DNA of 34,249 nt, from positions 1-34,249 of the forward strand of contig JAUNSQ010000002.1 in assembly GCA_030539135.1 (NCBI GenBank), in the 5' to 3' direction. Both the position numbers and the translations under genes were made by a program. Below, piece after piece: positions 7,760-33,941 of this stretch. Source of the stretch: Synergistaceae bacterium. Lineage in GTDB: Bacteria; Synergistota; Synergistia; Synergistales; Synergistaceae. Every line of letters starts with the position of its first letter. The stretch's first letter is position 1. Under the pieces are notes generated by a model. The model was given only the letters and a program-made list of their open reading frames with translations. It did no database searches and was not told the DNA's origin.

Positions 7760-8782
7760 TTATAGGTCGAGCTTCATATCTCCGTCTTTTATCAGCCCGG
7801 TCCGTCTCATTATATCGGCGATGACGAGCGTCGTTATCGCCGGAAGGATAAAATGCATCAGGGCAATTTGGAACAAGACGCTTGTCGAGGAGCCCATCGC
7901 GTCTATCGCCCCGAACTGTCCGACGAGGCCGCTTGTGCCCATGCCGGCTCCGGAAGGGATGTTGGTCATCTTGAATACGAGCGTCGATATCGGCCCAAGT
8001 ATCGCGCTTGCAAGCGTCGGTGGGACCCATATCATAGGATGGCGGACGATGTTCGGCATCTGGAGCATGGAGGTTCCTATGCCCTGAGATAGGAGCCCAG
8101 AGATCCCGTTCTCGCGAAAGCTCATGACCGCAAAGCCGATCATCTGCGTCGAGCAGCCTACCGTTGCGGCTCCTGCCGCGATGCCGGACAGGTTGAGCGC
8201 AACGGCTATTGCCGCGCTCGAAATCGGGAGAGTCAGTATCATGCCCATAACGGCGGAGACTATCGCCCCCATAGGCCCGGGCTGGAGCTCCGTGGCTCGC
8301 ATTATTATGAGGCCAAGCCCTGTCATCATAGCGCTCAGCGTCGGCCCTGCGAGCTTTGCTATCCCCATCCCTGCTATTATCGTCCCAGCGGGAGTGGCTA
8401 TTATGTCTATCTTTGTTTCCTTGGAGATGATCTTGCCAAATTCAGCTGCGAAGACCGCGCCGATGAAAGCGCCGACGGGGCCGCCCCAAGTGTTCCCCGC
8501 CAGCCCGACGGCTACGCAGGAGAATACGACCATCTGTGGGGCTCTAAGGGCCTGCGCTATTGCGACCGCGATGGCTGGGCCGACCATGGAGCTCGCGAGT
8601 CCGCCGAATTCGACTAAGATAGGGACGCCGGCCTTTGTCCCGATGGTTTTTAGGATAAGCCCCGTGATAAGTGACGCGAAAAGCCCGACGCCCATAGCGC
8701 CCAGCGCGTCGACAAAGTATCGTTTAAAAGAAAATTCCATGCCCTTGCGTTCAAGAAATGCGGAAACTGTATTATTTTGCAA
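7760..8782 (-). CDS. polytopic membrane protein, PTS EIIC-like (PTS_EIIC_2-type) transporter
   Basis: 340 aa, Gly/Ala-rich, about 10 TM helices. The N-terminal FKRYFVDALGAMGVGLFASLITGLILKTIG resembles stand-alone 'PTS subunit IIC' proteins. TTG start with AAGGGG upstream. No EIIA/EIIB genes are nearby. Confidence 0.55.
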   Translation of the reverse strand: MQNNTVSAFLERKGMEFSFKRYFVDALGAMGVGLFASLITGLILKTIGTKAGVPILVEFGGLASSMVGPAIAVAIAQALRAPQMVVFSCVAVGLAGNTWGGPVGAFIGAVFAAEFGKIISKETKIDIIATPAGTIIAGMGIAKLAGPTLSAMMTGLGLIIMRATELQPGPMGAIVSAVMGMILTLPISSAAIAVALNLSGIAAGAATVGCSTQMIGFAVMSFRENGISGLLSQGIGTSMLQMPNIVRHPMIWVPPTLASAILGPISTLVFKMTNIPSGAGMGTSGLVGQFGAIDAMGSSTSVLFQIALMHFILPAITTLVIADIMRRTGLIKDGDMKLDL

Positions 8783-8816
8783 TCTTATGACCCCTTATGG
8801 AGTAAATTTGCGTGCA

Positions 8817-8845
8817 ATTGTAGCCAGTTGGAGCGATGCTGTCAA
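8817..8845 (-). promoter_or_regulatory. sigma70-like promoter for the EIIC-like gene
   Basis: Minus strand reads TTGACA (8845-8840), a 17-nt spacer, then TACAAT (8822-8817). Confidence 0.5.
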
Positions 8846-8880
8846 AATAGTGAAATGTCTGTCAAAGAATTGCGGACATA

Positions 8881-8905
8881 AAAAATGGCGAAGCTGCGCC
8901 TCGCC
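8881..8905 (-). terminator. putative terminator after the SemiSWEET-like gene
   Basis: Minus strand reads GGCGAGGCGCAGCTTCGCC followed by ATTTTTTAT. Confidence 0.4.
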
Positions 8906-8924
8906 GTTAAGTCTGACCTATTCT

Positions 8925-9218
8925 CTAGCCGAGATGCGGCAGAGGACGGCCCTCCTCTATACGGTAGTTTCTGTAATAGAGAAAGATGTCGCAGATGACG
9001 AGTGTCATATCAAAGGTGTATGGGACAAGAAGGTACGGATGTCCGCTGCCGAGAAGGACCTTAATTATCCCGGAAAAATAGCCTATCACGATAATAATAA
9101 GGAAGAGGAGGCTCTTGCCCTTCCTTGTCCTGCCCGTCCACGATTTATAGAGAGCGGGCGGCCAGGCGGCCGCGAAGCATATCAGCATAAGCGTTTCAAA
9201 TAAATTGCTCAAAAGCAT
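8925..9218 (-). CDS. small 3-TM membrane protein, PQ-loop/SemiSWEET-like (tentative)
   Basis: 97 aa. AAWPPALYKSWTGRTRKGKSLLF resembles the PQ-loop motif (xxPQxxKxxRxKSxxGxS), with PP in place of PQ. AGGAG lies upstream of the ATG at 9218. The 173-aa track ORF is an over-extension. Confidence 0.6.
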   Translation of the reverse strand: MLLSNLFETLMLICFAAAWPPALYKSWTGRTRKGKSLLFLIIIVIGYFSGIIKVLLGSGHPYLLVPYTFDMTLVICDIFLYYRNYRIEEGRPLPHLG

Positions 9219-12618: not shown

Positions 12619-14280
12619 ATGGCTACACAGGGATATTTTACTGATCTTGAGAGCTTCAAAAAACTTAACCCGAACCAGTTAAGAACGACTATCGAATCGG
12701 CTTTTTACGGCAATAACGTTCAGCCGGTGAAGGACCTGCGCGAGGTATATAACCTTGCGAAGAACAGCCCCGGCACGATAGAACTTACAAGTATGCCGGT
12801 GTTCAGGCCGCTCGACCAGGGTCTTCCCAAGGGCGCCAACGTCCTGTTGTTCAACGATGGCACAGTCTTTGGACGCTGCGCCGCGGCGCGCCGTATCGTG
12901 GGATATCCAGACGTTTCTATCCCGGACTACGCGACTATCCTGCGCGAGGCGGTATATAAGGCCAGATATCGCAAGTTCTATTCCGCGGAAGCGGTCATTG
13001 GGCTTGACGAAGATTTCATGGTAAAGGCCAATATAATGATGCCGGAAGGCTTCGAGAACAATCTTTACAGCTGGATGGTGAACTTCCAGCACATGAACCG
13101 CGAATATCACGCGCGTTACCTAAAATCGCGCGAGCTGAAGAACGACGGAGATATCTTCGTCTTCGCCGACCCCGACTGGAGCGACCCGAACTTCCCGCTC
13201 GGCCTTGCGTTCTTCGCGCCTGAGCAGAACTGCGCCGCCATACTCGGCATGAGATACTTCGGAGAATTCAAGAAGGGTACGCTGACTCTGGCTTGGGGCA
13301 TCGCGGCAAGGAACGGTTACGCTTCATGCCACGGCGGACTCAAACGCTACACGCTCAAGGATGGCAGCAATAAGAAATACGTCCTCGCCGCTTTTGGGCT
13401 CTCCGGCTCCGGCAAGTCGACCATCACGCACGCCAAACACGGCGGCAAATACGACGTTCTCGTCCTGCACGACGACGCGCTTGTCATCAATGTCAAAGAA
13501 AAATACGCTATCGCGCTCGAACCGGCGTACTTCGACAAGATGCAGGATTATCCGATTGGATGCGAGGACAACAAATACCTGCTCACATTGCAGAACTGCG
13601 GAGCCACGTGCTACGCGGACGGCACAACGACCGTCGTCAGCGAAGATATTCGCAACGGCAACGGGCGCGCCGTCAAATCGCGCTACTGGTCGCCTAACAG
13701 GGTCGACCGTATCGACGAGCCTCTCAACGCTATCTGCTGGCTCATGAAGGATCCGACACTGCCGCCAGTCGTGAAGCTCACTGGCCCGTCGCTCGCTTCC
13801 GTCATGGGCGCTACGCTCGCCACGCGCCGCACGTCGGCGGAACGCCTCGCTCCCGGAGTAGACCCGGACGCGCTGGTCATAGAGAGCTACGCGAACCCGT
13901 TCAGGACATATCCGCTTGCGGTCGATTATGAGCGTTTCCGCGCACTGTTTGAAGACGGCGTGGAGTGCTACATACTCAACACCGGCTCGTTCATGGACAA
14001 GAAGGTCCCAAAGGAGACGACCCTTTCGATACTCGAATCCATCGTCGAAGGTAAGGCCGACTTCAAACCTATCGGCGGCATCCCCGGAATCGAAGCTATG
14101 GACCTCCCGGGATTTGAGGTCAACTTCTCGGATAAGGCGTACAAAGATCAGTTCGTGAACCGTATCAACGACAGGCTCAAGTTCGTAGAGTCGCGCAAGA
14201 CAGAGAGAAGCGGCATCGACGCTCTGCCGGCCGACGCTTCGGAAGCCCTGCAGAAGGTGCTGGATTTCATAAAGAAGTAA
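12619..14280 (+). CDS. pckA: phosphoenolpyruvate carboxykinase (ATP)-like, divergent
   Basis: The P-loop FGLSGSGKSTI matches PckA GLSGTGKTT. Also MRYFGEFKKG (vs GTWYGGEMKKG), ASCHGG (vs ASMHCS), LPPVVKLTG (vs LPPVSRLT) and YILNTG (vs YLVNTG). AAGGAGG precedes the ATG. Confidence 0.7.
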   Translation: MATQGYFTDLESFKKLNPNQLRTTIESAFYGNNVQPVKDLREVYNLAKNSPGTIELTSMPVFRPLDQGLPKGANVLLFNDGTVFGRCAAARRIVGYPDVSIPDYATILREAVYKARYRKFYSAEAVIGLDEDFMVKANIMMPEGFENNLYSWMVNFQHMNREYHARYLKSRELKNDGDIFVFADPDWSDPNFPLGLAFFAPEQNCAAILGMRYFGEFKKGTLTLAWGIAARNGYASCHGGLKRYTLKDGSNKKYVLAAFGLSGSGKSTITHAKHGGKYDVLVLHDDALVINVKEKYAIALEPAYFDKMQDYPIGCEDNKYLLTLQNCGATCYADGTTTVVSEDIRNGNGRAVKSRYWSPNRVDRIDEPLNAICWLMKDPTLPPVVKLTGPSLASVMGATLATRRTSAERLAPGVDPDALVIESYANPFRTYPLAVDYERFRALFEDGVECYILNTGSFMDKKVPKETTLSILESIVEGKADFKPIGGIPGIEAMDLPGFEVNFSDKAYKDQFVNRINDRLKFVESRKTERSGIDALPADASEALQKVLDFIKK

Positions 14281-26595: not shown

Positions 26596-27792
26596 ATGAC
26601 AACAAGGACAGCAGGTTTTCCAGAGGGAAAAATGTACGGGAATTTCGGCGGCATGTACGTGCCGAAGGAACTAGAGCCGATAATGACGGAGATCGCCGCG
26701 GAATACGAGAAGTGCAAGGCCGACCCTACGTTCAAAGAAGAATATCTAAGGCTCATGAAGGAATATGTCGGCCGCCCGTCCGCGCTGACAGAATGCGGGA
26801 ACCTTTCAAAAGAGACAGGAGGCGCGCGTATCTTCCTAAAGCGCGAAGACCTGAACCATACCGGAGCGCACAAGATAAACAACTGCATCGGACAGGCCCT
26901 TCTTGCCCGCCGCATGGGAAAGAAAAAGATAATAGCCGAGACTGGAGCCGGGATGCACGGAGTCGCCGCCGCGACCGTAGCCGCCCTGATGGGCATGGAG
27001 TGCGACATCTATATGGGAGCTGTGGACGTGGCGCGTCAGGCTCCGAACGTACTGCGCATGAAGGCTCTGGGGGCGCGGGTCGTATCCGTCGAGGCGGGAC
27101 AGAAGACATTGAAGGAGGCCGTCGACGCGGCGCTCGGCGCGCTGTGCGAGGACACGTCGCTCTTCTACCTCATAGGCTCTGCGGTGGGGCCGCACCCGTA
27201 TCCGGCGATGGTGCAGGACTTCCAGCGGATAATAGGCGACGAGGCGAGGGCGCAGATGCTTGAGCGCGAAGGCCGTCTGCCCGACGCGGTAGTCGCTTGC
27301 GTAGGCGGCGGGAGCAACGCGATAGGGGCTTTCACGGCTTTCATAAACGACAAAGGCGTGAGGCTCATCGGAGTCGAGCCTTCCGGCCGCGGGCTGACCT
27401 ATGGCAACCACGCCGCGTCTCTCACGATGGGCAGGCCCGGCGTTCTTCACGGATTTAAGAGCTATGTGCTGACGAAGGACGACGGCGAACCCGCGGAAGT
27501 ATATTCGATAGCGGCGGGGCTCGATTATCCGTCAGTTGGCCCCGCTCACGCCGCGCTCAAAGAGAGCGGCCGCGGCGAGTATATAGGCGCGAGCGACGCG
27601 GAGGCGTTAGACGCCTTCAAGCTCCTCTGCCGCACCGAGGGCATAATCCCCGCGCTTGAAAGCTCGCACGCCTTGGCAGGGGCTCTCAAAGCAGCGAAGA
27701 CCATGAAGGCGGGAGACATCATCCTAGTCAACCTCTCCGGCCGCGGCGACAAAGATATGGAGACCATCGCGAAATTAGGGATATTGGATTAA
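26596..27792 (+). CDS. trpB: tryptophan synthase beta chain (TrpB1-type), stand-alone
   Basis: Contains [15 protein letters not shown] (PLP lysine), [16 protein letters not shown] and SGRGDKD. GAGGAGG SD. No trpA or other trp genes are in the window. Confidence 0.9.
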
Positions 27793-27857: not shown

Positions 27858-27931
27858 GTGATATGTTCCACGATGCTCGCTTTTGTGCTAATATTTTATA
27901 GATACAATCGGTTGCATTGCGAGGTGGTCGA

Positions 27932-28510
27932 ATGAAAGTTACTATGAGCGACGTGGCGAAGGCCGCGGGAGTCGATAAAGCTACCGTCAGCCGGGCCTTG
28001 AAGGGCGACCCCCGGATATCCGAGAAGACCAGGGCGCTTGTCATGGACAGCGTGCGCACGCTTGGCTACAGACCCGACCTCAACGCCCGCCACCTTTCGA
28101 CGAACCGCAGCGGCTTCATCGGCCTGCTGCTCAGGGAGCTCAACGCGCCCGGAAGCATCGAGTTCATCTCCGGGCTTGACCGAGCTATTTCCAATTCCGA
28201 ATATGACCTTCTCATAAAGTGCACCGACGGCGACCCGCGCAGGGCCGCGCGCGAGCTTGCCAAACTGTCCGACAGGGACATCGAGGGTTTGATATGGGAA
28301 GATTCGGAGAACTTGCCTAAGGATATTTCCGTGCCATTGCTGACCATCGGATTTAAGCACAGTGGTTCAATATCATTGCTGTCCGAGGACGGTGGGCGGC
28401 TCCTGACATTTGAGACGGGAGCTCTAGCCGGGAGGCTGCTGCTGAACGCGATAATGGGGCGGCCTGTCCCGACCCACGAGGTCATCATCAGAAATTCCAA
28501 AGGGGAATAA
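27932..28510 (+). CDS. LacI-family HTH regulator, unusually short (192 aa)
   Basis: The HTH is MKVTMSDVAKAAGVDKATVSRALKGDPRISEKTRALVMDSVRTLGYRPDLNARHL. This is followed by only about 130 aa of sugar-binding-like domain, whereas normal family members have about 270 aa. Confidence 0.8.
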   Translation: MKVTMSDVAKAAGVDKATVSRALKGDPRISEKTRALVMDSVRTLGYRPDLNARHLSTNRSGFIGLLLRELNAPGSIEFISGLDRAISNSEYDLLIKCTDGDPRRAARELAKLSDRDIEGLIWEDSENLPKDISVPLLTIGFKHSGSISLLSEDGGRLLTFETGALAGRLLLNAIMGRPVPTHEVIIRNSKGE

Positions 28511-28516
28511 TATATT

Positions 28517-30235
28517 TTGACGATATTATTTTCACCGCATAGAAATCATCTCATAAGAATATTTTCATTTGCCGTGCTGTTCGCAGCGGCAATATTTGTT
28601 TTAGCGCCAGCCGCCCGTGCGGAGCGGAGGTTCGATCCGGCGAAGGTATACGGCCCCCGCATCGATAAGCTGTGCATGGTCATCATCAGAAATTCCGACT
28701 CACAGATACTCGCCGCGCAGAAGGGCGACATAGATATATTGGGCGATATCGTGCTGCCTTCGGATATCGACAGACTCAGCCGCGACCCAAATCTGAACAT
28801 GTCGCTTGCCCGAGGGTTTCACGCTTTCTTTCTGCTGATGAACAACAAGACCGCGCCGTGGAACGATAAATACGTGCGCCAAGCCGCCGCCGCGGCCATC
28901 GACCGCAACAATATGGTGAGAACGATATATTCCGGGTACTGCGAACCGATAAACAGCTGGCTTCCTCCCGTCTCCCCTTGGGCGATACCCGAGAGCGGGA
29001 AAAATATCTTTGACCGCGGGCTTGCGCGTGAAAAGCTCAAATCTGCGGGGTATTCATGGAACTTGGCTGGGACGCTTGTGGCTCCAAACGGCAAGGCTAT
29101 TCCCAAACTCAAACTGATGACGCCTCTGGCGCGCGTCGCCCCGACGACGGCGGAGCTCGCGGAGCAGATAGCCGATTCTCTGCGGGCGGTGGGCTTTCCC
29201 GTAGAGGTAGAGCCTATGGATTTCTCGGCGATGCTCGCCAAGCTGAACGACAAAAAATATTCCTTGGCCGTACTTGCGTGGGGTATGGGGCGCAACCCTG
29301 ACTCGCTGTACTCGTTCTACCACAGCTCGATGGACATGCCCGGAGGACAAAATCTCACGGGCACGCATGACAAGCAGCTTGACAATACGCTCGACCGCCT
29401 GCGCTTCGCGAAGAACAAGCAGGACGCTGAGAGGGCGTCGTCGGAGGCGCAGCATCTGCTGGCAGACCTGGTGCCGTCCGTCCCTATATACAGCCGCTTC
29501 TCAGTCGCGGCCGTCTCAAAAAAGTGGAAGAACGTGCTGATGACGGACAAGATAACCGCGGACAACATGTGGACGCTGATGATGGCGGAGCCAAAGGACG
29601 GGAAGAAACGGCCGCTGAACATGGCGCTCGCCGAGGAGCCGCGCAACATGAACCCGTTTGTAGCGAGCAGCGCTTACACGTGGCAGGTGCTTGGAATGAT
29701 ATACGAAGGGATGATAGGGACCGACCCGTTCACTCTGAAAGATATGCCGGCTCTGGCGGAGTCATGGAGCGTCGAGACCGTTGGCGGCGGGGCGGACGCC
29801 CGCACAGTCCTCAATTTCAAAATCAAAAAGGGGCTGAAGTGGAACGACGGGACGCCTCTGACCGCGCATGACGCAAAGGCCACTATAGACTTCCTGAAAA
29901 AGAATAAAGTGCCGCGATATTTCGACGCGGTGAAGAATGTTAAATCGACAGCTGCCTACGACGACGGGCGGCTCGTCGTCCAGATGGACGGCGTCAGCTA
30001 TTGGCATCTGGACAATATAGGCGGCATGATAGTCATGCCGGCGCGGGTGTTGGAGAAGATAAAGGACTGGCAGAACTGGAACCCGCTGGATAAGAGCGCG
30101 AAGTTCGGACCTTACGGACTTATAGGCTGCGGCCCGTTCATGCTTGAGGAATACAAGACCGGCGAATACGTTATGATGAAGCGCAATCCGTATTACAGGA
30201 TGCTCGCCGGTCCGAGAGGCGGCGCGGCGAAATGA
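28517..30235 (+). CDS. ABC transporter substrate-binding protein, family 5 (Opp/Dpp/Nik-type), circularly permuted
   Basis: Signal peptide ends ..AVLFAAAIFVLAPAARA|E. Residues ~45-345 look like the C-terminal two-thirds of DppA-type SBPs (VRQAAAAAIDRNNMV...). Residues ~360-560 look like the canonical N-terminal third (NMNPF...IYEGM...PALAESWSV...KKGLKWNDGTPLTAHD...GCGPFML). TTG start. Confidence 0.85.
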   Translation: MTILFSPHRNHLIRIFSFAVLFAAAIFVLAPAARAERRFDPAKVYGPRIDKLCMVIIRNSDSQILAAQKGDIDILGDIVLPSDIDRLSRDPNLNMSLARGFHAFFLLMNNKTAPWNDKYVRQAAAAAIDRNNMVRTIYSGYCEPINSWLPPVSPWAIPESGKNIFDRGLAREKLKSAGYSWNLAGTLVAPNGKAIPKLKLMTPLARVAPTTAELAEQIADSLRAVGFPVEVEPMDFSAMLAKLNDKKYSLAVLAWGMGRNPDSLYSFYHSSMDMPGGQNLTGTHDKQLDNTLDRLRFAKNKQDAERASSEAQHLLADLVPSVPIYSRFSVAAVSKKWKNVLMTDKITADNMWTLMMAEPKDGKKRPLNMALAEEPRNMNPFVASSAYTWQVLGMIYEGMIGTDPFTLKDMPALAESWSVETVGGGADARTVLNFKIKKGLKWNDGTPLTAHDAKATIDFLKKNKVPRYFDAVKNVKSTAAYDDGRLVVQMDGVSYWHLDNIGGMIVMPARVLEKIKDWQNWNPLDKSAKFGPYGLIGCGPFMLEEYKTGEYVMMKRNPYYRMLAGPRGGAAK

Positions 30236-31209
30236 GCCGTTCGTGGCTGATACGCAGGATATTGTCCTCGCTTGCCGTGCTGGCCGCCGTGCTAGTGCTG
30301 AACTTCCTGCTGTTCCGCATAATGCCCGGCGACGCCGTAAGCACGATAATCGACCCGAACTTCTCGCCTGAGGCCAAGGCGCGTCTGCGCGAGCTTTACG
30401 GGCTTGACAAGCCTATGCTCGAACAGTTCTTCATATACATAAAGCAGATGCTGACGTTTAGCTTCGGGCTGTCGTTCCTGAGCAGGAAGCCCGTATGGGA
30501 CGAACTGTTTTCGCGTCTGCCGTCCACTCTCATACTTATGAGCCTGTCGATGATATTCTCCGCGGCCTTGGGGATATGGCTCGGCATAAAGGCCGCTGTC
30601 AAACGCGGAACGCTCCTTGAGAGGGCGGTGCTCAGGCTTGGCGCGGTTACGGCGTCTTTCCCGGGATTTTTTGTCCAGCTTGTGCTTATAATGCTCTTCG
30701 CCAGGATATTCCCAATTTTCCCTCTGCGCGGCACGCTTTCCGTGCCTCCGCCCACCGGTATATTCGCGTACTTGTGCGACTACGCCATGCACATGGCTCT
30801 CCCTGTGTTCTCTCTGACGCTTATGGGCTTCGGAGGCTGGGCTTTGTTCGTGCGCAATATGATGGTGCGCGCTCTCTCCGAGGACTATATCATAATGGCG
30901 CGCGCGAGGGGGCTCTCGGAGAGCAGGGTGATATACGGACACGCCTTTAGAGCGATACTTCCCCCCATTCTTACGATACTGCTTATGTCCGTTCCCGGGC
31001 TCGTGTCGGGGGCTGTTATAACAGAAACGGTATTCTCGCTTTACGGCGTAGGCACGTTCCTGCTCGAAGCCGTGTCCGGTCATGATTACCCGTCTGCGGG
31101 GGCCGCGTTCTATCTGCTTGCTCTGATAACCGTCGTCTGCAACCTGCTCGCCGATATCGTCTACGGCATGGTAGACCCCCGCGTGCGCATAGAGGGGCGC
31201 AACCAATGA
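30232..31209 (+). CDS. ABC transporter permease (DppB/OppB-like)
   Basis: Begins RRILSSLAVLAAVLVLNFLLFRIMPGD and shows a BPD_transp_1 EAA-loop pattern. ATGA overlap with the SBP gene. Confidence 0.85.
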   Translation: MSRSWLIRRILSSLAVLAAVLVLNFLLFRIMPGDAVSTIIDPNFSPEAKARLRELYGLDKPMLEQFFIYIKQMLTFSFGLSFLSRKPVWDELFSRLPSTLILMSLSMIFSAALGIWLGIKAAVKRGTLLERAVLRLGAVTASFPGFFVQLVLIMLFARIFPIFPLRGTLSVPPPTGIFAYLCDYAMHMALPVFSLTLMGFGGWALFVRNMMVRALSEDYIIMARARGLSESRVIYGHAFRAILPPILTILLMSVPGLVSGAVITETVFSLYGVGTFLLEAVSGHDYPSAGAAFYLLALITVVCNLLADIVYGMVDPRVRIEGRNQ

Positions 31210-32384
31210 GCGGGCTGCTTCGGCGCAAATCGGTGATAGCTTTTATCATGATATGTATTGTCGGCTTTGCTGGCCCGGCGTTCATTGGCGGCCATCCGCA
31301 CGACGCCGTCGGCGCGCCCTTCGCGAGGCCGATATGGTGGAACGCGAAACTATCCTCTACGGTAAAAATAAATTTGGATGAAAAGGGAGCTAAACTTGAA
31401 TGGACGAAACTCCCACCAGCGATCTTCTCCCTAACCGGCGAGATAAAGGCTGACCCGAATAGCGCCGTATCGATAATCTGGCGCACGCCGAAGGGCGAAT
31501 ACAAACTCGCCGGGATGACCGGGCGGCCGTCCTACTGGCTCAACATGGACGGGCGCGACATGATATTCAAGCAGTCGCTGGGGCTTCCTCTTATCGGCAA
31601 AAGCGTAGAATACCTTTTCCCGTGCACGGGCAAATATTCCCTGTCGATAGACGGAGCTTCCGCCGCCGACCTGACGCTCTCTCTTCCGGGCGCGAGACAC
31701 GGACTGCTCGGGACTGACCAGAGAGGCCGCGACGTTTTTACAATGTTTATCTACGGGATAAGGACTTCGCTCATCGTCGGCATTTGCGCCACGATAATAG
31801 CCTGCGTGCTGGGGCTTGGCTTTGGGCTCGCCGCGGGCTACGTCGGCGGCATGACCGACGCGCTGATAATGCGCTCGGTCGATATCCTGCTCTCTATCCC
31901 GACGCTGCCGATACTTATGGTGCTTGCCGGGATATGGGGCAAGGGGCTTTGGCAGCTTGTGCTCATACTATCCATATTCTCATGGATGGGCACCGCGCGT
32001 TCCGTGCGCTCAATGGTCCTCACAGTTCGCGAAAGTCCTTGGGTAGAGGGGCTTAGGGCGCTTGGAGCGAAGCGCGGCTACATACTTTGGCGGCATCTGG
32101 TGCCGGAGACGGCCCCGATAATGCTGGCCAACCTCGCGCTCGGCGTACCCGGAGCGATACTTTCTGAGGCGGGGCTCGCCTTCCTTGGCCTGTCAGACCC
32201 GCGCCTCATATCGTGGGGGCGCATGCTCCATGAGGCCCATTCTTTTGGGGCGTTCACCGAAGGCGCGTGGTGGCTGCTGCTGCCTCCCGGCATCGGCGTA
32301 GTCGCGGTATGCCTTATATTTATGGATATCGGGCGTTATCTCGAAGAGAAGATCGACCCGCGACTTGGAGGCGGACGCCCATGA
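31206..32384 (+). CDS. ABC transporter permease (DppC/OppC-like) with an extracytoplasmic insert of about 130 aa after TM1
   Basis: TM1 spans residues ~10-28 and the canonical LGTDQRGRDVF motif appears only at residue ~170. The C-terminal core is typical of DppC. Confidence 0.85.
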   Translation: MSGLLRRKSVIAFIMICIVGFAGPAFIGGHPHDAVGAPFARPIWWNAKLSSTVKINLDEKGAKLEWTKLPPAIFSLTGEIKADPNSAVSIIWRTPKGEYKLAGMTGRPSYWLNMDGRDMIFKQSLGLPLIGKSVEYLFPCTGKYSLSIDGASAADLTLSLPGARHGLLGTDQRGRDVFTMFIYGIRTSLIVGICATIIACVLGLGFGLAAGYVGGMTDALIMRSVDILLSIPTLPILMVLAGIWGKGLWQLVLILSIFSWMGTARSVRSMVLTVRESPWVEGLRALGAKRGYILWRHLVPETAPIMLANLALGVPGAILSEAGLAFLGLSDPRLISWGRMLHEAHSFGAFTEGAWWLLLPPGIGVVAVCLIFMDIGRYLEEKIDPRLGGGRP

Positions 32385-33136
32385 TAGAATTTCGCGACCT
32401 AACCGTGCGTTATGCTGGTTCCGCGAGCGACGCCGTCAAGGGCGTGTCGTTCACGCTTGAGGACGGGACGTTCACAGGGCTCATCGGCGAATCCGGGAGC
32501 GGCAAGAGCACAATTGTAGGCTCCGCGCTTCGGATACTGCCAAGGGATACGTCTGTAAAAGGAAATATCATTATTGACGGCAAGGACTTGCTCGCTCTCG
32601 GCGAGGAAGAACTCCGTCGCGTTCGTTGGAAAGATATGGCGCTTGTTCCGCAGGGGGCGATGAATTCCTTTACCCCTGTTATTACGATTGGGAGACATAT
32701 AACGGAAACGATATCAACGCACGAAACGGAATGCCGGGCCGATATGAATGAGACAATAGACAGGCTGCTCAATGAAGTCGGCCTTGACGCGCCGGTGAAA
32801 GACAAATACCCTCACGAGCTGTCCGGCGGGCAGAAGCAGCGCGCCGCTATCGCGCTCGCTCTGTCGTGTTCTCCAAGCCTGCTGTTCGCCGACGAACCTA
32901 CCACCGCCCTTGACGTAGTGACTCAGGCCGGAGTGCTGAAACTGCTGGCTGGACTCCAGGAGAAGAAATCTCTGACGGTTCTGCTGGTTACGCACGACCT
33001 CCCCTTGGCCGCGTCGGTCTGCGGCAGGCTGCTTGTCATGAAAGACGGCGAGATAGTCGAGAGCGGGACGCCGCGCGAGATAATCACCGACCCGCGCCAT
33101 GAGCATACGAAAGCCCTCGTCAGGTCGATGCTTTAA
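32381..33136 (+). CDS. ABC transporter ATP-binding protein (DppD/OppD-like)
   Basis: Walker A GESGSGKST, signature LSGGQKQR, Walker B LLFADEPTTALD. ATGA overlap with the upstream gene. Confidence 0.9.
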   Translation: MIEFRDLTVRYAGSASDAVKGVSFTLEDGTFTGLIGESGSGKSTIVGSALRILPRDTSVKGNIIIDGKDLLALGEEELRRVRWKDMALVPQGAMNSFTPVITIGRHITETISTHETECRADMNETIDRLLNEVGLDAPVKDKYPHELSGGQKQRAAIALALSCSPSLLFADEPTTALDVVTQAGVLKLLAGLQEKKSLTVLLVTHDLPLAASVCGRLLVMKDGEIVESGTPREIITDPRHEHTKALVRSML

Positions 33137-33143
33137 GGTGGAC

Positions 33144-33941
33144 ATGATGGACATATCGCGGGAAATACTGAACGTAAAAAATCTAAGCGTGAGATTCAAA
33201 TCGAAGAACGGCCTAGTTCACACGGCGGTCGATGACATATCGCTGACGCTGCGAGACGGCGACGTGACGGCGCTCGTAGGCGAATCCGGCAGCGGAAAGA
33301 CGACGCTTGCGCGCGCAGTGATGGGCCTTGTTGAGAGGGCGGCCGGCACGGTCAGCCTGTTTGGGAAAGACACCTCCGCCCTGAATGCGGAGGAGTTCAA
33401 CGAGCTGCGCCGCATGTGCGGCTACATACCGCAAGACCCTTATGGGGCCATCCCTCCCGGACTGTCGGCGCTTGACGCCGTGACAGAACCGGCCGTCATA
33501 GCGCGCAGGTACGCGAGGTACGCGAGGGACGAAAGGGAGCTTAGGGCGCGCCTGCTGTTAAAGGAGCTGGGGCTTGACGACGAAAGGATATTGAGATCGC
33601 GGGCCGTGGGGCTTTCAGGCGGACAGAGGCAGAGGGTAGAGATAGCCCGAGCGCTGATGCTGTCGCCAAAGCTGCTGATCTGCGACGAGCCGACGTCGAT
33701 GCAGGACGTCTCGACGCGCGGGGAGATAATCGAAGTTCTATACAAGCGGGTCTCAGAGGGCATGTCGATGATATTCATAACGCACGACCTCTTGTTAGCC
33801 GGCCGCGCCGCGAAATCTATTCTTGTTATGAAAGACGGGCGGCTCTGCGAATACGGAAGCGCCTCAGACGTGCTGAACCGCCCTAAGCACGAATATACAA
33901 GGGCCCTGCTTGACGCCGTGCCGAGAAATAAATTTATCTAA
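33144..33941 (+). CDS. ABC transporter ATP-binding protein (DppF/OppF-like)
   Basis: Walker A GESGSGKTT, signature LSGGQRQR, Walker B LLICDEPTSMQD. TAAGGTGG SD. Confidence 0.9.
   Translation: MMDISREILNVKNLSVRFKSKNGLVHTAVDDISLTLRDGDVTALVGESGSGKTTLARAVMGLVERAAGTVSLFGKDTSALNAEEFNELRRMCGYIPQDPYGAIPPGLSALDAVTEPAVIARRYARYARDERELRARLLLKELGLDDERILRSRAVGLSGGQRQRVEIARALMLSPKLLICDEPTSMQDVSTRGEIIEVLYKRVSEGMSMIFITHDLLLAGRAAKSILVMKDGRLCEYGSASDVLNRPKHEYTRALLDAVPRNKFI

Follow-up and report, generated by a model that had tools for sequence, protein, structure and literature searches.

Solute-binding proteins (SBPs) of cluster C (family 5, Opp/Dpp/Nik-type) are among the best-studied bacterial transport receptors and are widely used as biosensor scaffolds, and to our knowledge the order of their chain has been regarded as invariable. 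A gene on a Synergistaceae contig (JAUNSQ010000002.1, positions 1 to 34,249; hereafter the window, the whole 34,249-nucleotide stretch that was analyzed) raises the question of whether this order can be permuted in nature. The gene is the first of a five-gene Dpp/Opp-type ATP-binding cassette (ABC) importer operon (SBP, two permeases, two ATPases), and it is the only SBP gene of that operon according to the list of open reading frames (ORFs) and Pfam. An earlier note, made from the DNA letters, had proposed that its product carries the conserved blocks of Opp/Dpp-type SBPs in swapped order. Overall, our results indicate, with a probability that we put at about 0.86, that the gene encodes a genuine, functional and naturally circularly permuted cluster C SBP.

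The swapped block order was recovered in all the comparisons that we made, the matches to Pfam, NCBIfam, PDB and DppA sequences being non-collinear. The SBP_bac_5 profile (PF00496) matched the protein with 210.8 bits (cut-off 32.4, E = 4e-62) in two stretches, the best of which placed residues 47-270 on profile positions 146-363 of 368. Two non-collinear partial matches are what the earlier note had expected from this search, and no single collinear alignment covered the native sequence. In NCBIfam, the NikA model placed SBP residues 47-335 on its positions 192-480, and the CntA model placed residues 360-560 on its positions 32-215. The PDB chain 8upi was matched twice and out of order (query 370-560 to chain 18-207; query 47-199 to chain 213-366), the same out-of-order double match was seen again for chains 5isu and 1xoc, and a search against all PDB sequences returned no match crossing SBP residues ~345-365. 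When compared with the E. coli DppA precursor, the first part of the protein (the C block) corresponded to residues 236-518 and the second part (the N block) to residues 27-128 and 208-233, which places the cut at approximately DppA precursor 233/236 and corrects the earlier placing of the block start around residue 250 of DppA. Within the C block lie the second part of domain I, domain II in full and the C-terminal strand of the canonical fold. This block (residues ~45-356) matches the last ~300 residues of canonical DppA, OppA and NikA, and the N block (residues ~357-563) matches their first ~200.

When the protein was de-permuted in silico (residues 358-563 followed by residues 44-357) and searched again against the PDB chains, it aligned in single near-full-length stretches (3-505 to 8are 14-511; 11-497 to 5isu 21-475), and the PDB alignment scores, previously 81, 77 and 70 bits, increased to 96, 91 and 84 bits. 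The alignment was continuous over the former termini, NPYYRML followed by VYGPRIDKL being aligned to the contiguous canonical NPDYWHKGLPHLDKI. The canonical collinear block order of family 5 was not observed for the native protein in any comparison and was restored only by de-permutation. The two blocks are thus swapped with the native termini abutting at one position of the parent fold, which is the mark of a circular permutant. Since the rejoined halves align collinearly straight through the former termini, these results argue for a circular permutation, and the protein reads as a family-5 homologue with a variant topology.

The same order was found in more than 100 full-length homologues (45-84% identity, from independent assemblies). 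Clustered at 90% identity, the proteins with this order form more than 100 groups, which come from the NCBI, JGI, ENA and Logan assemblies. When one genome was scanned for each species, collinear full-length matches were obtained at 79 loci, nearly all named Synergistota (Synergistaceae, Pyramidobacter, Cloacibacillus, Synergistes, Aminobacteriaceae, Aminivibrio, Acetomicrobium). Across 57 aligned homologues, the junction follows the pattern KNV.T..TADN.WTL..EP.DG..RPL, with T347, N350 and W352 invariant, and the mean conservation of the junction columns is 0.69-0.77 versus a protein average of 0.62. At the new N-terminus, P47 is invariant, G-P-[RK] is conserved and an equivalent hydrophobic leader directly precedes the G-P-[RK]-I block in all 57 homologues; conservation of the C-terminal tail is 0.26. 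The AlphaFold2 (AF2) model, built with the homologue alignment, had a mean predicted local distance difference test (pLDDT) value of 91.2 and a predicted template-modelling score (pTM) of 0.86, with pLDDT of 93-96 over residues 341-370, which include the junction, values below 50 at residues 567-572 and disorder at the extreme termini only. Sequential Foldseek alignment of this model placed its C block on 290-340 columns of the ~500-residue NikA, DppA and AppA chains (probability 1.00, template-modelling score ~0.45-0.54, root-mean-square deviation 2.7-5 Å); Foldseek returned no match above ~340 columns and no solved chain with the same block order. Taken together, these results confirm a real protein that is maintained by selection.

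When 1.84 billion representative proteins were searched exhaustively, 164 matches below 1e-30 were obtained, and the best 150 were re-analyzed with phmmer and block hidden Markov models. Among these 150 representatives, 108 align through the C-to-N junction. Full-length proteins with the C-N order (type A) number 73, with an identical cut point in all of them; 13 have the order C2-N-C1, with a second cut inside domain II at approximately query residue 185-215 (type B), and 22 have the canonical N-C order. By source name, the type A proteins come from Bacillota, Geothermarchaeales, Bathyarchaeia, Methanomethylicia/Verstraetearchaeota, Thorarchaeota and Synergistota, the taxonomy of the distant members being that of a handful of named sequences. 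The archaeal members give the same non-collinear pair of Pfam matches, and the same operon layout was found in the Synergistaceae, Bacillota, Geothermarchaeales, Bathyarchaeia and Methanomethylicia loci. The SBP of the window therefore belongs to an old and sizeable cross-domain family (Archaea and two bacterial phyla) and is not a one-off of this genome.

Most of the distant type A and type B relatives end with a C-terminal extension that holds a transmembrane helix and a basic tail, and this extension is absent from the window SBP and its Synergistota and Bacillota relatives. The C-terminal transmembrane anchor is present in most type B proteins, and one type B gene (L005 5685-7409) lies in an ABC operon with normal-length permeases. 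Giant or decorated relatives were also observed (P0191, 2586 amino acids (aa); P0200, 2427 aa; P0143, 4308 aa; P0179; P0205). P0143 and P0200 hold two permuted modules each; one relative of this group combines a permuted module with a Peptidase_S8 subtilase and PKD-like domains, others carry two permuted modules with PKD/Big domains, and several have a C-terminal Dockerin_1. In a Thorarchaeota locus (L088 837-9216), three tandem SBP_bac_5 genes (585, 1060 and 1071 aa, the last being the type A protein P0218) have no adjoining permease or ATPase genes, and their products may be orphan surface receptors, not transporter components.

The type A genes share a further character with their operons. 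In the window, the OppC-like permease has an extracytoplasmic loop of ~155 residues between its first two transmembrane helices (~31269-31733, transmembrane scan), compared to ~40 residues in canonical permeases. The OppC-like permeases beside type A genes in six operons from five lineages are 392, 397, 483, 555, 479 and 494 aa long, with an external insertion of 110-270 residues at this place that is homologous among the Synergistota, Bacillota and archaeal operons and has no Pfam match. By BLASTP, residues 30-386 of the window permease align to residues 180-550 of its Bacillota counterpart (locus L007) with 38% identity, and the insert is also common to an archaeal operon (L001). The insertion accompanies type A in 6/6 operons. 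It is missing from the type B operons, from those of the N-C-N-C type (double SBPs, described below) and from E. coli DppC, where the permeases are 280-300 aa long (E. coli DppC, 300 aa). Since the OppC-like permease beside type A genes is always long, the operon seems to have been passed on as a whole, by inheritance or by transfer.

We propose that the permuted order arose once, in a lineage that would also have gained the large external OppC insertion, and that the whole operon would then have reached Archaea, Bacillota and Synergistota by descent or by transfer. The junction motif W-[TS]-x-L-N...GG is common to the window SBP and to the archaeal and Bacillota members, and this shared motif together with the homologous OppC insertion favors a single origin of type A. 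The likely route would be an in-frame fusion of tandem SBP genes, after which the outer N and C parts would have been lost. Tandem SBP genes that include permuted ones are present in L007 and L088, and P0208 (Methanophagales, L006 947-3997) is a 1016-aa in-frame N-C-N-C fusion of two complete canonical SBPs, whose halves are 68% identical over 486 residues, with 26 near-identical members in its cluster and a gene that heads an otherwise normal Dpp-type operon. The duplication model predicts an intermediate of this kind, of which P0208 is an extant example; P0208 shows only that such a fusion is viable. Duplication followed by trimming thus stays the most plausible origin, because of the tandem gene copies and the N-C-N-C fusion found elsewhere. 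The earlier note had proposed the same route from a GPR tripeptide near each terminus, and this part of its argument fell away. A C-terminal GPR occurs in 1/116 full-length homologues, the window SBP itself, and its closest relative ends with ...RMLSNPKGGGWK. The N-terminal G-P-[RK] is the conserved 'P-x-l-d' beginning of the canonical strand, and the C-terminal GPR is coincidental; we therefore rejected the two tripeptides as duplication scars.

With regard to function, the chain begins, after a Sec-type signal peptide, at the equivalent of DppA precursor ~236, runs through the rest of domain I, domain II, the canonical C-terminal strand, a short, ordered and conserved linker and the canonical N-terminal strand, and ends past the hairpin that canonically precedes residue ~236. 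The cut would fall in the domain I loop after the conserved G-x-G-P-[FY]...N-P-x-Y hairpin and would leave both lobe-to-lobe hinge crossovers in place, given the block mapping on DppA and the DppA domain boundaries of the literature. Because the cut lies within a domain I loop and the crossovers would be kept, the protein should still act as a Venus-flytrap receptor. It would bind its ligand between the lobes in the periplasm and then hand it over to the permeases (30232-32384) and ATPases encoded on the same transcript. The stop codon of the SBP gene and the ATG of the DppB-like permease gene overlap (aaATGAgc), which is consistent with translational coupling; the earlier description of an intact, signal-peptide-bearing, permease-coupled and probably functional gene was borne out on these points. 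The ligand is probably a peptide or a peptide-like compound, which would not be held as DppA holds dipeptides. Synergistota have an amino-acid-fermenting lifestyle, and this, together with the subtilase fusion in one relative, weakly hints at a peptide. The gene neighbors gave no consistent clue to the ligand: in Synergistota they are POR genes and the short gene of LacI type, and in the archaeal loci they are unrelated genes.

Three other explanations of these data were weighed. The window lies on a single metagenome-style contig, so that fragments of one or two ordinary SBP genes could have been misjoined there by assembly or gene calling. Since the junction recurs in 79 species-level genomes, full-length and collinear, and in the more than 100 protein clusters from four sources of assemblies, is conserved above the protein average and keeps its flanking synteny, misassembly was ruled out and an artefact of this kind has practically no probability left. 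A natural fusion might also have joined the 3' part of one SBP gene to the 5' part of a neighboring paralogue and be decaying as a pseudogene that yields no single folded receptor, given that tandem SBP genes are common in Opp operons and that fusions such as P0208 occur. We consider this very improbable: the ORF is intact, the signal peptide is grafted straight onto the new N-terminus in all the homologues, the alignment columns have an average identity of 62% and many residues do not vary throughout the phylum, the mature length of ~530 aa is exactly that of one SBP, the AF2 model is compact (pTM 0.86) and the gene is the only SBP gene of its operon.

The third explanation accepts the permutation and holds that the order arose several times, convergently, in Synergistota, Bacillota and Archaea, in a domain I loop that tolerates cuts easily. 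It was examined with a crude neighbor-joining tree of de-permuted sequences (110 sequences, 470 columns, 200 bootstraps, 25-35% identity), in which the split between 73 type A plus 2 type B sequences and 22 canonical plus 11 type B sequences plus the N-C-N-C fusion was recovered in 138/200 bootstraps, that is, a type A clan with only 69%. The type B proteins formed a clan in 0/200 bootstraps and were scattered among canonical sequences; since this second cut point exists and is scattered in the tree, permutation may recur in the superfamily. Against separate origins of type A itself stand the one cut point in all 73 representatives, the shared junction motif W-T-x-L-N...GG and a rare independent character, the homologous OppC insertion, in 6/6 type A operons of five lineages. 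Repeated convergence is thus unlikely for type A, although less so than the two explanations above, and a single origin is preferred. We also advance, tentatively and at somewhat less than even odds, a broader proposal: that the type A SBP and the enlarged OppC-like permease form a distinct, ancient and mainly archaeal importer subclass, in which receptor topology and docking partner changed together and whose operon later passed into Bacillota and Synergistota, and that circular permutation has happened on more than one occasion among natural cluster C SBPs, with the cut points of types A and B, the N-C-N-C fusions and the multi-module giants as its traces.

Several points weigh against our interpretation of a functional, once-permuted transport receptor. 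The permuted fold is that of the AF2 model, and it is we who infer ligand binding and docking on the permeases, by analogy with DppA, which docks on DppBC (PMC12136057). The ligand-clamping residues of DppA, R383 and D436 in precursor numbering (PMC12136057), are not conserved: at D436 the window SBP has a one-residue deletion (W255-G-M-G-R-N-P-D262), and R383 corresponds to K199, a mapping that is approximate at ~20% identity. K199 adjoins the conserved clade-specific insertion T-P-L-A-R-V-A-P-T-T. Because these clamps are not conserved, a peptide ligand is only a guess. The bootstrap support for a single origin is moderate in the crude tree, where P0208 groups with the canonical proteins and is not close to the type A clan. 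Finally, since the Thorarchaeota copies have no adjacent permeases, not every member of the family need be a transporter component.

Compared with the known canonical cluster C SBPs (E. coli DppA, OppA and NikA; B. subtilis AppA), the window SBP is homologous over essentially the whole mature length and keeps the same conserved motifs. It shares with them signal-peptide export, the position as first gene of the operon, the DppB/C-type permeases and the DppD/F-type ATPases with oligo_HPY. It differs from them by the permutation itself, in which a conserved linker connects the former termini, by the non-conserved DppA clamps and by its OppC-like partner with the large external insertion. Its NCBIfam equivalog scores are also far below the curated cut-offs: 113 bits versus 650 for Opp4A, the best score, 58.6 versus 1005 for DppA (NF043070), 111 versus 393 for NikA, 102 versus 560 for SapA and 64 versus 800 for CntA. 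Orthology with DppA, OppA or NikA was rejected on these scores and on the differing ligand residues. Sugar- and peptide-binding proteins of Sulfolobus and Pyrococcus are archaeal members of the di/oligopeptide class with a C-terminal membrane anchor. Most of the distant type A and type B relatives resemble them in having a signal peptide and a C-terminal transmembrane anchor; the window SBP has no such anchor, and we know of no report of a permuted order in characterized archaeal SBPs.

A natural permutation of another ABC-transporter SBP has been described in Treponema pallidum Tp0684 (TpMglB-2), a 'Type Ic / Cluster Bc' circularly permuted glucose-binding protein, in which three N-lobe strands are shifted and a fourth hinge crossover is needed (PMC4990184). 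As in our case, the permutation is kept in a family, and TpMglB-2 still binds its ligand with a conformational change (PMC4990184). In contrast, TpMglB-2 is a cluster B / type I, MglB-like protein, and the window SBP is a cluster C protein without sequence relationship to it: Pfam gave no Peripla_BP family match for the window SBP, and all its PDB matches were cluster C proteins. The cut of the window SBP lies within domain I, so that the number of lobe crossovers should be unchanged, unlike in TpMglB-2. We found no report of a permuted cluster C or family 5 SBP in the full-text literature, a search that returned only TpMglB-2 and engineered permutants and that mostly does not extend to subscription journals; the permuted cluster C class is apparently undescribed.

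The features of the locus and of its relatives are presented in Table 1. The SBP gene starts with a TTG codon located ~10 nucleotides 3' of AAAGGGGA, and the hydrophobic core of its product (residues 14-32) is followed by ARA, an AxA motif, and then ERR. The two ATPase ORFs, as listed (32267-33136 and 33099-33941), run 118 and 38 nucleotides into the preceding genes. As their orthologues in the Synergistaceae locus L003 have 253 aa and 265 aa, their true starts are probably the ATG codon at 32381, in an ATGA overlap with the permease stop codon, and position 33144. The short LacI-family gene upstream ends 7 nucleotides before the SBP start and encodes a helix-turn-helix with only the first ~60 residues of the sugar-binding domain (residues 67-127 match Peripla_BP_1 weakly). 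The truncation is not a recent one, since a 195-aa counterpart is conserved at the same place in two other Synergistaceae loci (L003 and L004).

Table 1. Location of the permuted SBP gene, its parts, its operon and related features (coordinates in the window unless a locus is named).
Feature	Location	Strand	Basis or remark
Short LacI-family gene, 197 aa, directly upstream of the SBP gene	27917..28510	+	Pfam LacI residues 9-54, 57 bits
Circularly permuted family-5 (cluster C) SBP gene, 572 aa	28517..30235	+	ORF list; Pfam, NCBIfam and PDB matches
Predicted signal peptide, residues 1-35, probably cut after A-R-A	28517..28621	+	Predicted, read from sequence
C block, residues 45-356	28649..29584	+	DppA precursor 236-518
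Junction, residues 341-366, LMTDKITADNMWTLMMAEPKDGKKRP	29537..29614	+	Canonical C-tail, short linker, canonical N-strand
N block, residues 357-563, ending at NPxY motif	29585..30205	+	DppA precursor 27-233
Variable low-confidence C-terminal tail, residues 564-572, including the non-conserved GPR	30206..30232	+	pLDDT, conservation
DppB/OppB-like permease, 325 aa	30232..31209	+	Pfam BPD_transp_1_N, BPD_transp_1
OppC/DppC-like permease, 392 aa, unusually long	31206..32384	+	Pfam BPD_transp_1 over residues 203-383 only
DppD-like ATPase	32381..33136 (listed ORF opens 32267)	+	Pfam ABC_tran
DppF-like ATPase with oligo_HPY C-terminal region	33144..33941 (listed ORF opens 33099)	+	Pfam ABC_tran, oligo_HPY
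OppC-like permeases with insertion	window 31206-32384; L003 10678-11871; L007 10910-12577; L001 7549-9000; L087 8857-10296; L089 9200-10684		
Type B proteins	P0145, P0157, P0167, P0172, P0173, P0193, P0222, P0230, P0232, P0241, P0247, P0251, P0261		

The remaining part of the window is ordinary chromosome, with genes for an alanine racemase, a Na+/H+ exchanger, a FadL-like porin, MatE, a homoserine dehydrogenase, a DEAD helicase, 2-oxoacid:ferredoxin oxidoreductase subunits and TrpB, and is syntenic with Synergistaceae contigs. The TrpB-like pyridoxal-phosphate enzyme gene (26596-27792) separates the 2-oxoacid:ferredoxin oxidoreductase genes from the LacI-like gene and is missing there in the syntenic loci L003 and L004. 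At 12619-14280, a 553-aa protein matches PEPCK_ATP only weakly and in part (47.7 bits, residues 104-480) and may be a divergent kinase-like protein. A 359-aa ORF without Pfam match (8124-9203) overlaps a 340-aa ORF of the opposite strand (7760-8782).

These observations have consequences for annotation. Profile pipelines split the type A proteins into two partial matches and label them with the generic term 'ABC transporter substrate-binding protein'; therefore, the class is invisible in current databases, and substrate predictions carried over from DppA, OppA or NikA are unsafe for it. The occurrence of the class in Archaea, Bacillota and Synergistota suggests that the operon was passed between domains within anaerobic communities. 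Since type A is strictly associated with the enlarged OppC loop, the results also suggest that the receptor topology and the docking surface of the translocator have co-evolved. A large family with another chain order, and perhaps with a second cut point too, reveals the loops in which the fold can accommodate new termini. This bears on protein engineering, where circular permutation of SBPs is made artificially. If this interpretation is true, the superfamily would be a natural test bed for the constraints of topology on the Venus-flytrap receptor.

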